Source: Armatimonadota bacterium (GTDB taxonomy: Bacteria; Armatimonadota; Fimbriimonadia; Fimbriimonadales; GBS-DC). From it: a stretch of 64,000 bases of DNA. A model generated the notes under the pieces. That model did not search any database, was not told the DNA's origin, and worked only from the letters and a program-made list of their open reading frames with translations. The translations under genes were made by a program, and so were the position numbers. Below, in pieces: positions 58,302 to 62,468 of this stretch. The number at the start of each line of letters is the position of its first letter. The stretch's first letter is position 1. Location: contig JBBIJY010000007.1 of assembly GCA_037445735.1 (NCBI GenBank), positions 41,701 to 105,700 of the forward strand, read 5' to 3'.

Positions 58302-60356
58302 TCAGGTGCTGGGCGCGGCGGTCTCGGCAACGGTCATACCTGCCTCGATGCGTTCCAGCAGGATTTCGGCGATGTCTTTGACAGGAACGCGGTCGTCTTT
58401 TTGCTTGATGCTGTCGGAGACCATAATCATGCAGAAGGGGCAGCCGACGGCGACGGTACGGGCGCCCGTTTTGAGCAGCTCCTCGGCGCGAATAAGGCCA
58501 GGGCGCTGTTCGGGCGCTTCGTCCATCCACATGCGTCCGCCGCCTGCACCGCAGCAGAAGGTGCGCTCGCGGGCGCGCTCTGGCTCGGCGAGGTTTGCCC
58601 CGGACGCCTCCAGCACGGCACGGGGCGCATCGTGAATTTTGTTCACACGCGCCAGATAACATGGGTCGTGGAAAGTGAGCGTGCCGTCGGGCATCGGCGC
58701 AGGGCGCGGCAGCCGACCCTGCTGAATCAGCTCCGCCAGCACCTGTGAGTGGTGAACCACCTCGTACGCGCCGCCCAGCTTGCGATACTCGTGCTTGAGC
58801 GTGTGCAGGCAGTGCGGGCACATCGTCATGATGCGCTTCGGCTGATAGCGGTTCAGCGTCTGAATGTTCTGCTGGGCTAAATCCTGGAAGAGCAGGTCTT
58901 CACCCAGTCGGCGTGGGGTGTCGCCCGTACAGCGCTCTTCAGGTCCCAGAATGGCGAAGTTCACACCCGCCATCTGAAGCAGTTTGACAATCGCGCGGGC
59001 GACCTGCTGCCCCCGCGAGTCGTACGAGCCGGCGCAGCCGACCCAGAAGAGCAGTTCGAAGGTCGGGTTATCGCGCGCGAGCGGCACATTCAGCCCCTGC
59101 GCCCAGTTAGTGCGTTCGGTAAGCGGCAGCCCCCACGGGTTCGATTGCGTGCCGATGCGCTGCAAAGTGCCTGCTGCTGTACCGCGCAGGTTGCCCTCCG
59201 CCACCCGATAGCGGCGCATCTCCATAATCAGCGTCGGATGCTCAATCAGCACGGGGCACTCGTTATTGCACGCGCCGCAGGTCGTGCAGGCGAACAGCTC
59301 CTCATCGCTGATGACCGTTGTCAGGTCGCTCCCATCGCCGCGTTCCATCGCCTCGCGCAGCTTCTCCACGATGCGCTTGGGGTTCAGCGGCTTGCCTGTG
59401 GCGTAGGCGGGGCATACCCGCTCACAGCGTCCGCACCCCATGCAGGCGTCCAGGCTCATCAGGTGCCAGCGCGAGAAGTCGCTCAGCGCATTCACACCCA
59501 TCTTGCCCGTCTGCTCCACCTGCTCGATGCTCTCGATGGCGGGCACATTCGGCAGGTAGTTCGGCTTGTAATACGCCACCACAGGCGCCATGAACAGGTG
59601 GCGCACCCGATTGAACGCCAGCGAGGCGAACCATGCCGCGATCAGCACCGCGTGCAGCCACCACCAGAACTTGTACGCGCCCACCGAGATGCCCTCAAAG
59701 GCGGGCGCCAGCGCGTAGCCCACGAACGACCACACCTGCGCATAATCGGGGCGCGGCGGGTTCATAAACGCAGGATTGCGCTCCAGCGCGATGCGCGCCG
59801 CCTCCAGCACATAGCCCGTGAGTGCAATCAGTAGCAGCAGCCACACCGACAGCGCGTCCAGCGGATGATGGCTCACCGATGGCGGACGCTGCACCTGCCG
59901 CCGCCACAACGCCAGCACACACCCGAAAATCACCCCCAGCCCGAACAGGTCGAGCGTCACCTCGTAGAGAATGAAATACAACCCCTTGTGGAACCAGATG
60001 CCCTCCTTCATGAAGATGCCCGTGCCGATTTCCGTCCACTCGGCAATTGCCAGCAGGGTGGTGCCAATCGTTAAAATCGCGAAGCCCACAAACAGCGGCA
60101 GGTGGAAGATAGCCGCGAAGCGGTGGCGAGGCACCTTCTTCTGTCCAAAAGCGTACGCCAGCATCTGCCAGACGCGCTGTCGGAACGGCTGCGGAGCCTC
60201 GTCGGGCTTGCCCTGTCGCCAGAGGCGCAGTCGGCTCCAGTACCACCAGACGCTCACGCCCAGCGAGGCGAACATCAACAGGTAAAACAGCACCTTCTCG
60301 ATCGGCGTCAGCCCGATATAGGTCTGGCGCGTAATCTCGTCCCAGTTCCATTCCAT
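58302..60356 (-). CDS. Membrane Fe-S oxidoreductase (FadF/HdrD-like)
   Basis: TM region, CMGCGRCERVCP and CTTCGACNNECP, CCG domains (E.CTGD, HDPC, FCCGAGGG, GCPFC); start at ATG 60356. Confidence 0.9.
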   Translation of the reverse strand: MEWNWDEITRQTYIGLTPIEKVLFYLLMFASLGVSVWWYWSRLRLWRQGKPDEAPQPFRQRVWQMLAYAFGQKKVPRHRFAAIFHLPLFVGFAILTIGTTLLAIAEWTEIGTGIFMKEGIWFHKGLYFILYEVTLDLFGLGVIFGCVLALWRRQVQRPPSVSHHPLDALSVWLLLLIALTGYVLEAARIALERNPAFMNPPRPDYAQVWSFVGYALAPAFEGISVGAYKFWWWLHAVLIAAWFASLAFNRVRHLFMAPVVAYYKPNYLPNVPAIESIEQVEQTGKMGVNALSDFSRWHLMSLDACMGCGRCERVCPAYATGKPLNPKRIVEKLREAMERGDGSDLTTVISDEELFACTTCGACNNECPVLIEHPTLIMEMRRYRVAEGNLRGTAAGTLQRIGTQSNPWGLPLTERTNWAQGLNVPLARDNPTFELLFWVGCAGSYDSRGQQVARAIVKLLQMAGVNFAILGPEERCTGDTPRRLGEDLLFQDLAQQNIQTLNRYQPKRIMTMCPHCLHTLKHEYRKLGGAYEVVHHSQVLAELIQQGRLPRPAPMPDGTLTFHDPCYLARVNKIHDAPRAVLEASGANLAEPERARERTFCCGAGGGRMWMDEAPEQRPGLIRAEELLKTGARTVAVGCPFCMIMVSDSIKQKDDRVPVKDIAEILLERIEAGMTVAETAAPST

Positions 60357-60426
60357 ACCGAACACCCCATCATCTTCGAACGGTGGGTTAATTTTTCGGG
60401 GCGTGCGGTCAGAATCCTGCCTGCTG

Positions 60427-60467
60427 AAAAAAAATCGCCGCACGGGGCGAGTGCCGTGCGGCGGATT
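60427..60467 (-). terminator. Rho-independent terminator
   Basis: CGCCGCACGG/CCGTGCGGCG stem followed by ATTTTTTTT on the minus strand. Confidence 0.8.
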
Positions 60468-60605
60468 GCATCTTTTCCCTCGCGCAGGCATAGGGGAGAG
60501 GACGAGGCTGCAGAAAATCTGCCGCCAGCGATGACACCTGTAGCATACAGTCGCTCGCTTTAAGGCGGGGTTAAGCCCTGTTAAGGTTCGGTAAAATCGG
60601 GGCGG

Positions 60606-61601
60606 ATGCAGATTCTGTTTCTGGACGAGGTGGACAGCACGCAGCGGGTGGCGATTGAGCTGGTGCAGCGGGGCGAGCGGGCGTGGGACGCCGTATGCGC
60701 CGAGCATCAGACGGCAGGGCGCGGGCGACGCGGCGCCCACTGGCACGACGAGCCAGGTGCCAGCCTGCTGGTCTCGCTTATCCTGTGGGATGTGCCCTTG
60801 CCGGACCCACCAGGGCTGATCGGCGTGATGACGGCGATTGCAGCCGCTGAATCGCTGGAGAGGCTCTTTCCCGCCCTGCAGGTACAGCTCAAGTATCCCA
60901 ACGATCTGGTGGTGCATGGTCGCAAGCTGGGCGGGATTCTGGTGGAGATTGCAGAGAATGTGGCGGTGGTGGGGATCGGCGTCAATCTGGCGCAACGCGA
61001 GTTCCCCGAACCGCTTCAGGCGAGCGCAATCTCGGTCTGGCAGGCGATAGCATACGGAGGTAGCCCCTCACCCCCCTGCCCCTTCTCCCACGCTGTGGGC
61101 GAGGGGGTTTCTGAAACCCTCTCCCCCTCTGGGGGAGAGGGTACGGGTGAGGGGGTAGCATCACAGCAAAGTCGAGGGAACCCCTCACCCCAACCCTCTC
61201 CCCAGCGGGGCGAGGGGGTTTCCAGGTCCCTCTCCCCCTCTGATGGAGAGGGCGAACGAGTCGCTGAAACCCTCTCCCCCGCCTGCGGGGGAGAGGGTAC
61301 GGGTGAGGGGGAAGATTCAACCTCCTCTCGCGCGGTGCGCACGCGCCTGATTGAAGCGATTGCCGCACGCCTGCACGCGCTTGTCGCCGAACTTACGCAG
61401 GCGGGTACGCAACGAATCCACGCGCTCTGGCAGGCACGCGACGCCTCCGCAGGTCGCCCCTATCAGGTGCTGGACCTGCCCCAGCAGCCGGTGGGTGTTG
61501 CGCTTCAGGTGGAACCCGATTTCCGCCTGCGCCTCCGCCTGCCCGACGGCAGCGAGCATTGCACCTACTGGGTGCATGGCGTATTCAGCATCGGCGCGTA
61601 G
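60606..61601 (+). CDS. birA: Biotin-protein ligase (class I) with in-frame palindromic insertion
   Basis: EVDSTQ, QTAGRGRRG, KYPNDL...KLGGIL.E, GIGVN. Confidence 0.9.
   Translation: MQILFLDEVDSTQRVAIELVQRGERAWDAVCAEHQTAGRGRRGAHWHDEPGASLLVSLILWDVPLPDPPGLIGVMTAIAAAESLERLFPALQVQLKYPNDLVVHGRKLGGILVEIAENVAVVGIGVNLAQREFPEPLQASAISVWQAIAYGGSPSPPCPFSHAVGEGVSETLSPSGGEGTGEGVASQQSRGNPSPQPSPQRGEGVSRSLSPSDGEGERVAETLSPACGGEGTGEGEDSTSSRAVRTRLIEAIAARLHALVAELTQAGTQRIHALWQARDASAGRPYQVLDLPQQPVGVALQVEPDFRLRLRLPDGSEHCTYWVHGVFSIGA
61064..61310. repeat. Two tandem cloverleaf palindromic elements inside birA
   Basis: Units 61064-61154 and 61181-61310, each bounded by CCCCTCACCC/GGGTGAGGGG and enclosing 2-3 CCCTCTCCCC/GGGGAGAGGG-type hairpins. 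Confidence 0.9.
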
Positions 61602-61625
61602 AGGCGTCGGGTATCATTCCTTCTG

Positions 61626-62468
61626 ATGTGGCGCGGGCGTATCTATTTCGGCGATAACCTGCAGGTGCTGAAAACCCTGCCCTCCGAATCGGTGGACTTA
61701 ATCTATATTGACCCGCCCTTCAACACGGGCAGGGAACAGTGCTACACGGCGTTGCGTACCGTACGCTCCGAAATGGGCGATCGGGTTGGCTTTGGCGGCA
61801 AACGCTATCGCACGCTCATACTCGGCTCGCGGAGTTTTGTGGACATTTTTGATGACTATCTTGCCTTTCTGGAGCCGCGCCTGCTGGAGGCGTATCGCGT
61901 GCTCGCGCCGCACGGCAGCCTCTACTTCCATATTGACTATCGCGAGGTGCATTACTGCAAGGTTCTGCTGGACGCCATCTTCGGGCGGGAGTGTTTCCTG
62001 AACGAGATTATCTGGGCGTATGACTACGGTGGACGCCCCCGCCGCAAATGGCCCCCCAAGCACGATAATATTTTGCTTTATGTGAAAGACCCTGAGCGCT
62101 ACATCTTCAACACCGACGAGATAGACCGTATCCCCTACATGGCGCCGGGGCTGGTGGGCGCGGAGAAGGCGCAGCGGGGCAAGTTGCCGACCGATGTGTG
62201 GTGGCATACGATTGTGCCCACCAATAGCAAGGAGCGTGTCGGCTACCCAACTCAGAAACCGCTGGGCATTTTGCGCCGAATCATCCGCGCCTCCTCGCGC
62301 CCTGGGGATTTGGTTCTGGACTTTTTCGCGGGCAGCGGCACCACGGGCGTCGCCGCGCTGGAACTGGGCAGGCGCTTCATTCTGGTGGACAACAACCCTG
62401 AAGCGATTGAGGTGATGCAGCGCCGCTTTCACGGCTGGGATGGGATTGAGTGGATGGAGGTGGAGTGA
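61626..62468 (+). CDS. Site-specific N4/N6 DNA methyltransferase (beta class)
   Basis: YIDPPFNTG precedes YPTQKP and LDFFAGSGTT. Confidence 0.92.
   Translation: MWRGRIYFGDNLQVLKTLPSESVDLIYIDPPFNTGREQCYTALRTVRSEMGDRVGFGGKRYRTLILGSRSFVDIFDDYLAFLEPRLLEAYRVLAPHGSLYFHIDYREVHYCKVLLDAIFGRECFLNEIIWAYDYGGRPRRKWPPKHDNILLYVKDPERYIFNTDEIDRIPYMAPGLVGAEKAQRGKLPTDVWWHTIVPTNSKERVGYPTQKPLGILRRIIRASSRPGDLVLDFFAGSGTTGVAALELGRRFILVDNNPEAIEVMQRRFHGWDGIEWMEVE

Follow-up and report, generated by a model that had tools for sequence, protein, structure and literature searches.

The biotin protein ligase gene (birA) on a 64,000-nt stretch of an Armatimonadota genome (the stretch as a whole is termed the window, and its genome G000) carries in frame an array of BoxC/triplex-motif repeats that is likely translated as a disordered, near-neutral loop of a probably working ligase, and the repeats are likely the non-autonomous remnants of cassettes built around a DUF559 nuclease gene. 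The probability of this reading taken as a whole is roughly 0.6. Its first part, a translated and near-neutral BoxC-type array in birA, is real and well supported, and an origin of the repeats from DUF559 cassettes stands at about even odds. The features of the gene and of its insert are collected in Table 1.

Table 1. Features of birA and of the repeat array within it (positions are those of the window; strand is left empty where none applies)
Feature	Positions	Strand	Remarks
birA, biotin protein ligase (class I, no N-terminal DNA-binding domain), 331 aa	60606..61601	+	GRGRRG, KYPND, KLGGILVE and GIGVN motifs intact
Whole repeat array	61064..61310	+	In frame, ~codons 153-235; P/S/G/E-rich peptide, predicted disordered
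Cluster 1	61064..61155		CCCCTCACCC box, two hairpins, GGGTGAGGGG box
Triplex-motif unit, relaxed match	61117..61153	+	First loop 7 nt, second loop TAC; reads LSPSGGEGTGEG
25-nt spacer	61156..61180		Right box to next left box; position of the DUF559 gene in nuclease-carrying cassettes, e.g. L035
Cluster 2	61181..61310		Box, three main hairpins with GAACGAGTCGCTG linker, box
Exact TM_ECO (BoxC/PIT) consensus match	61182..61216	-	Coding strand reads PSPQPSPQRGEG
Triplex-motif unit, relaxed match	61270..61309	+	First loop 10 nt
Two 45-nt direct repeats	61097..61252	+	84% alike, 111 nt apart; one such period missing in congener G002

The ligase is recognized by a profile match to PF03099 at residues 10-121, and ten of its residues (G38, R39, G40, R41, G43, W46, P98, N99, D100 and K107) are invariant across 83 sequences. 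It has the catalytic domain of a class I enzyme with the biotin/ATP motifs, no N-terminal winged helix and a matching fold, and its named homologues are Fimbriimonadales/Armatimonadota proteins. The insert of 247 bases (about 83 codons) starts a few codons past AISVWQA and introduces zero stops and zero frameshifts, with G, S, P or E accounting for 53 of its ~83 residues. A preliminary description of the window had proposed a palindromic element lying in frame in birA, adding roughly 80 P/S/G/E-rich residues just after an AISV segment to an enzyme that normally has no such segment, and each of these points is borne out: two hairpin clusters are present, the loop measures 100 aa compared to 15-33 aa by the same measure in 12 sister-clade rows, and most relatives lack the loop.

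The folding of the insert is far more stable than that of its shuffled versions, both as DNA (z-score -7.5) and as RNA (z -8.0), with 0/200 shuffles equally stable in either case. The relaxed triplex-motif pattern occurs three times in the window, always within the birA insert, a number reached in 0/100 shuffles. Triplex-motif units on the + and - strands alternate along the insert, cluster 2 is slightly larger than a cluster 1 copy, and the ends of the insert form perfect 10-nt inverted repeats (61064-61073 and 61301-61310) of the kind that terminates MITEs. The genes adjoining birA are an N6/N4 DNA methylase (PF01555; 61626-62468, +) that begins 24 bases 3' of birA with no partner nuclease seen adjoining, and a divergent membrane Fe-S oxidoreductase (Fer4 and two CCG domains; 58302-60356, -).

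Contigs of sequencing run X1, which may be the source sample, match 60400-61146, 61126-61210 and 61270-61731 with zero differences and do not cover ~61222-61255, a hole that in itself proves nothing. As none of the X1 contigs listed spans the entire insert and a shorter form exists in congener G002, the array might be present with its middle 111-114 nt (the start of cluster 2) being an artefact assembled from repeat copies elsewhere. Such an artefact is very improbable given that one 81-nt X1 contig is exact at 61126-61206, including the spacer, for which the G000 genome holds no close copy (best match 0.64, in a loose-pattern census that mixes linkers with spacers), that an identical 331-aa protein is recorded on 2 contigs, and that the frame remains open through the insert, which is also seen in other long arrays. 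The 81-nt contig over the spacer has a depth of 7.6 compared to 15 in the flanks, and beside it lies a variant piece (depth 8.2, 9 differences), perhaps a second allele or a different locus. In run X2, a contig of the shorter G002-like form spans the insert site, and runs X3 and X4 yielded only short pieces of that form.

Judged by sequence, the repeat is a member of the BoxC/PIT/TM_ECO family and not a new lineage-specific element. The TM_ECO consensus (CCCTCNCCC N3-6 GGGNGAGGG N3 GGGNGAGGG), reported from 262 proteobacterial genomes (Holder et al. 2015, PMC4666352), is matched in the insert once exactly and twice in relaxed form by units with 7- and 10-nt first loops. Across the 2.78-Mb G000 genome there are 74 exact matches and about 259-263 relaxed matches (longer loops allowed), compared to 0 relaxed motifs in a reversed control, and the commonest first loop is 7 nt (126/263 relaxed matches). 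A blastn search with the insert recovered 209 merged loci, and a motif census counted 463 hairpins, compared to 0 in a Markov control, distributed over 228 hairpin-bearing arrays; hairpin, left box and right box occur together, as an inverted pair, in 113/240 merged loci. The relaxed motif is present in 20/29 genomes of the family, with 259 copies in G000, 77 in the next highest and 55 in G002. The consensus matches and the far greater number of motifs in G000 than in its relatives identify a lineage-specific burst of an already known repeat family. The preliminary description's view of a non-autonomous dispersed repeat agrees with these 228 arrays, for which no coding partner lies nearby.

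The arrays have in common with BoxC/PIT/TM_ECO of E. coli a consensus in which a C-rich arm, a loop and a G-rich arm are followed, after 3 nt, by another G-rich box, as well as many dispersed copies, inverted pairs, large copy-number gaps between close relatives and local length instability. They differ in their Armatimonadota host, in a commonest first loop of 7 nt instead of 3-6, and in longer multi-hairpin arrays of which about a fifth lie within coding sequence; the accessible text on the E. coli copies treats them relative to neighbouring genes and leaves the mobilizing enzyme unnamed (PMC4666352). The Rickettsia palindromic elements (RPE) are likewise palindromic repeats located in frame in unrelated conserved genes, apparently compatible with function (PMC10969869, PMC3733652). 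Unlike the RPE, for which a CGTC end tag is stated in R. conorii (PMC3733652), the arrays have no such tag (0/459 left boxes), and the two are set apart by this tag and by description: RPEs are ~150-bp units with a conserved peptide, and the arrays are modular (25-304 nt) with low-complexity P/S/G/E linkers that expand and erode. The intragenic GTAG/CGTC REPs and the REP/RAYT and TIR/TIRYT systems also consist of short GC-rich hairpins occurring as singles, pairs and clusters, some of them coding (PMC3733652), and REP clusters encoding 43-82 aa and insertions in tRNA synthetases and repair genes have been described (PMC3733652, PMC3184786). In REP/RAYT and TIR/TIRYT a repeat-flanked cognate enzyme gene is the proposed mobilizer (PMC3733652), as is proposed here for DUF559. 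Unlike REP/RAYT, there is no conserved GTAG/CGTC tag, the Y1-domain gene has no repeat flanks and a DUF559 nuclease takes the place of the tyrosine transposase as candidate partner. A GTAG tag was found in only 10/459 left boxes, the birA copy among them, and end tags of the GTAG/CGTC REP or RPE type were rejected for this lack of conservation.

Many of the arrays lie within genes. Of the 228, 43 have coding sequence to either side in one continuous frame, and no array flanked in this way was classed as breaking the frame (0 cases); in a further 10 the reading frame runs into the array at a C-terminus, 52 are located at an N-terminus or ahead of it, and the remaining 123 are intergenic. Genes were called with a home-made dicodon score trained on the G000 genome, so the 43 should be considered a lower bound, and some of the N-terminal and intergenic arrays are probably coding. 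The in-frame arrays are spread over 40 open reading frames, and of the 39 other than birA, 24 match an NCBIfam model (E <= 1e-15). The hosts include valS, carB, smc (two arrays), mfd, murD, murE, ispE, folC, trmD, lpxK, mutL, pyruvate kinase and transketolase, bearing out the earlier suggestion that housekeeping enzymes of this lineage carry the element. Because ~84% of the genome is coding, yet only about a fifth of the arrays lie in coding sequence, arrays are strongly depleted from genes. A peptidase-like gene (C20:7036-10251, L076) holds three in-frame arrays, all of which are shorter but present in G002. Small modules resembling PIN-type toxin-antitoxin systems were seen by eye between arrays (C19:48037, C2:146321-147102, C53:3415-4507 and C8:40169-40956), and at the C19 site one such module is present in G002 and absent in G000.

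Where arrays are coding, one reading predominates. A TAC-type unit is present in 33 of the coding arrays (10 of the 43 have none), and 27 of these are read as EGTGEG, in one orientation and frame, with 1 in an Arg/Val-rich frame and 5 in reverse. Outside the coding class this reading makes up 68/297 open readings in 101 arrays (p=1.3e-12, a generous value as the arrays are related). A comparison of G000 with 693 kb of G002 (about a quarter of its genome; 37 arrays anchored, median flank identity 96%) showed that differences in array length are a multiple of 3 at 11/11 coding arrays and at 7/15 intergenic arrays. This bias in reading frame, combined with the frame-preserving changes in length, indicates that the birA insert is likely translated and not handled as RNA, though the frame bias could also arise if insertion sites were preferred according to codon position. 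The preliminary description had left room for handling at the RNA level; in an account of this kind the structured insert would be removed or skipped, resulting in a mature protein of normal length. The very stable RNA fold would suit such a process, but only translation would be expected to preserve the frame at all 11 coding arrays and to favour one peptide reading so strongly, and a search of Rfam returned no family at gathering score and 21 weak matches, mostly to miRNA-type hairpins. Handling of the insert as RNA is very improbable.

The pattern of substitution in birA between G000 and G002 is consistent with a conserved enzyme carrying a loop under little constraint. The dN/dS ratio is 0.16 for residues 1-149 (the catalytic part) and 0.97 for the shared insert (Fisher p=0.02), with a value of 0.60 for the last 86 codons, based on small counts. 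The AlphaFold model built from 83 sequences has a mean pLDDT of 81, with 216 residues at pLDDT >= 90 and low confidence only in the insert (about 35-60) and the termini. In the model the insert sits between a helix at 144-151 and a long helix starting at 236, and the protein matches solved biotin ligases over both halves; the insert is predicted to be a disordered surface loop that leaves the predicted fold intact. No second biotin ligase was detected in G000 by tblastn, leaving birA as the sole one detected, and the two biotin carboxylase domains of the genome require such a ligase. Purifying selection, the single copy and the match to solved ligases together argue that the insert-bearing BirA is probably still a working ligase.

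It is conceivable that the loop was selected for a new function, such as tuning the adjoining adenylate-binding region or adding a binding surface. Arrays occur at the same loop of BirA in several lineages, and the loop starts some twelve residues past the part that aligns with E. coli BirA 211-218, which we take to be the adenylate-binding loop. A selected function is nonetheless quite improbable, as the dN/dS of the insert is about 1, the peptide varies freely in sequence and length among lineages and decays to remnants, and the loop is missing in most orthologues. The earlier proposal that the palindrome is creating new peptide loops is accurate as a statement of sequence, and no new function is indicated since the loop evolves neutrally and erodes.

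The history of the loop can be followed across relatives, as a birA orthologue was found in 40/41 genomes searched. Same-genus orthologues with no array are 254 and 257 aa in length. Measured between fixed anchors, the loop ranges from 0 to 126 aa across 78 BirA rows of the family and is mostly 13-26 aa, with 7 rows that lacked the anchors dropped and a quick tree used. Clear arrays occur in the loops of G000/G002, G006, G020, G023 and three database proteins; the loop of G010, the sister of G006, is 8 aa. These arrays differ among lineages in start frame and hairpin subtype, and in the five genome loci examined at the DNA level an intact right box translates as GGE or GEG. Grouping the 8 array-bearing rows among 33 as one clade is rejected (p-AU 6e-47; 5 changes needed, 4 of them forced by strong branches), a test on an unrooted tree of rows hand-picked from the 78, with the group named after the first tree was seen. 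We infer that separate lineages were hit at the same BirA loop, and it should be noted that these gains could in part be one old gain followed by several losses. The short loops GGRGAGERV and SPHPPAPLSH look like eroded arrays. Two copies of birA occur in G023, at L007 (C1:2487) and C33:3329, with open frames of 355 and 314 aa; as this genome has 4% contamination, one copy may be foreign. In two sister-clade proteins (P0004, P0008) the short peptides of the BirA loop (GSPLERGNLQEGV) are similar to a second family of palindromes, GGTTCCCC...GGGGAACC, which flanks DUF559 in G015 and G008 (L039, L046), and to judge from the peptide, this second family may have hit the same loop too.

In the 94%-identical congener G002, birA (293 aa) has an in-frame version of the array that is 114 nt shorter and agrees with that of G000 in its ends and its internal linker, and differences of 108-117 nt or about double recur at other array loci. 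Because the spacer in birA has no close copy in the genome, a loss in G002 is favoured over a recent gain in G000. A clean empty site for birA was not found (dS 0.89 to G001). At 11/37 anchored sites G002 has no repeat, and no consistent target duplication was seen at these 11 sites by eye on part of the alignments, several of which resemble deletions in G002. That the element is mobile, as the preliminary description had it, is inferred: neither a clean empty site nor a consistent target duplication was seen, and the candidate partners were either not found in G000 or are unlinked to the repeats there.

The candidates that had been put forward were a linked Y1 transposase and a DUF559 nuclease, and profile searches of G000 for mobilizers covered these two. 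The only Y1_Tnp match in G000 (C1:175227-175559, L031) lies ~4.7 kb from the nearest array, and as it has no repeat flanks it was rejected as the partner of the repeats. It reads QVN at the position where we would presume the HUH motif to be. HUH thus appears to be missing from this gene, which also has a C-terminal segment fused on that in our view resembles a sigma-factor helix-turn-helix, and it is possibly a domesticated regulator. No DUF559 (PF04480) was found in G000 (99.2% complete, 59 contigs) by profile or by permissive tblastn with the domains of 8 relatives (best E 0.25). The intervals of 150-1500 nt between arrays (n=18) showed no transposase- or nuclease-like content by eye. Arrays lie <150 bases from a contig end in 16/228 cases (C6, C9, C12, C15, C37, C42, C51, C53, C56 and others), implying that the repeat breaks the assembly and that a repeat-flanked gene could be absent from it.

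The link to DUF559 that had been looked for in G000 is instead seen in relatives. DUF559 occurs in 11/29 genomes of the family (E <= 0.001) and in 78/151 genomes of the order (E <= 1e-20; G054 counted only in this tally). Around the 30 best DUF559 genes, C-rich hairpins are found within 300 nt in 30/56 flanks compared to 0/52 flanks at 1.1-1.4 kb, a control in which far flanks are mostly coding and near flanks often intergenic. Hairpins stand on both sides of only 9/26 fully flanked DUF559 genes, and the near-flank hairpins across the order are of several different sequence types. In G023 (L035:832-2244) a cluster-DUF559-cluster cassette, each cluster arranged as box-hairpin-hairpin-box, is located in frame inside YbeY with a 471-aa open frame, and in G018 a DUF559 gene with such hairpins lies in the variable region of MurD that also holds the bare array of G000, about 25 residues from the position of the latter. 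The layout of such a cassette, cluster-gene-cluster, equals the cluster-spacer-cluster of birA. Compared with BirA-loop arrays, the flank of the YbeY cassette reaches 79% identity with that of G020 (107 nt) and 74% with that of G006 (115 nt), and the first unit of the insert in the window is 87% identical over 54 nt to a DUF559 flank in G006. In L038 (G043) and L043 (G023), at locus positions ~1500-1820, DUF559 lies in the homing-endonuclease position of an intein-like insert (ends HNCGSGTT) of a DNA methylase and is closely preceded by a C-rich hairpin; the designation as intein comes from motif reading. A fusion of BirA and DUF559 was absent from the best 120 of 2135 near-length matches and from 2 longer ones, a weak result drawn from 7998 scored candidates.

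These observations tie DUF559 to the repeats only circumstantially, as no DUF559 was found in G000 and copy number does not track it: 6/7 genomes with >= 40 motifs, one of which (G012) consists of a single contig, have no DUF559 match, and no difference in motif number was seen between 9 genomes with DUF559 and 20 without (p=0.83). The same translated, neutral loop could have arisen if the repeats spread with no dedicated nuclease, where the hairpin or triplex stalls replication, units are copied and deleted by slippage, recombination and gene conversion, and DUF559 genes are passengers between repeats. That the genome with the largest burst has no DUF559 found and that copy number does not follow DUF559 would fit this account, as would the predominance of ~110-nt gains and losses within arrays already there among the G000-G002 differences, and the local instability to which TM_ECO sites have been tied by Holder et al. 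(PMC4666352). The two near-identical arrays in smc (C8:23106-23290 and C8:24366-24562, L059), which lie 1.2 kb apart with the same spacer and suggest local copying, are also in its favour. It is still unlikely, for it leaves unexplained both the presence of C-rich hairpins of several types in the near flanks of DUF559 genes across the order and the arrival of arrays at new sites, of which trmD (free of arrays in G002) is an example.

The history favoured here, with repeats derived from DUF559 cassettes, begins with the dispersed arrays and their in-frame copies. In the common ancestor of G000 and G002, an array would have been inserted into the loop that separates the short helix following AISV from the long helix, and other lineages would have been hit separately at the same loop. 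The statistics on reading frame suggest that selection purges gene-breaking copies and favours the reading that produces an acidic Gly/Pro/Ser/Glu linker. The observed lengths are consistent with arrays that grow and shrink by ~111-nt units between direct repeats and erode to short remnants. As the final step, held at about even odds, a DUF559 nuclease that is only at times present would cut at or near the hairpins and repair would copy the array. A broader and more tentative proposal, to which we give somewhat less than even odds, is that a widespread selfish element gave rise to BoxC/triplex-motif repeats as its non-autonomous derivatives, the autonomous version of this element being a DUF559 (Vsr-fold) nuclease gene with a hairpin cluster on either side. 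One stop-free, linker-like reading would allow this element to live in essential proteins with no splicing, to hit the same permissive loops again and to leave decaying peptide scars, and the array in birA would be a cassette in which only a 25-nt spacer is left of the nuclease gene.

Both the repeat family and the idea of palindromes becoming protein were already known, and for this reason a single insertion in birA is no surprise. In the accessible literature, no paper was found that ties DUF559 to BoxC/TM_ECO repeats or reports BoxC arrays in coding sequence; work on the CIR element (Chen and Shapiro 2003) and on cyanobacterial small dispersed repeats (Elhai et al. 2008), along with the supplements of Holder and Di Nocera, may bear on it. 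What is added is a natural series at one enzyme loop, with loops that have no array, fresh arrays (in separate lineages), shortened ones and eroded remnants, together with a measure of how selection sorts the readings of the repeat that persist in proteins and a link, at the level of sequence, between the BirA-loop arrays and DUF559 cassettes. The 43 tolerated sites map the insertion-accepting loops of essential enzymes. If the link to DUF559 is true, it would offer a testable answer to how the BoxC/triplex-motif repeats, which have been unexplained since the 1990s, spread, with a small non-transposase nuclease as the mobilizer.
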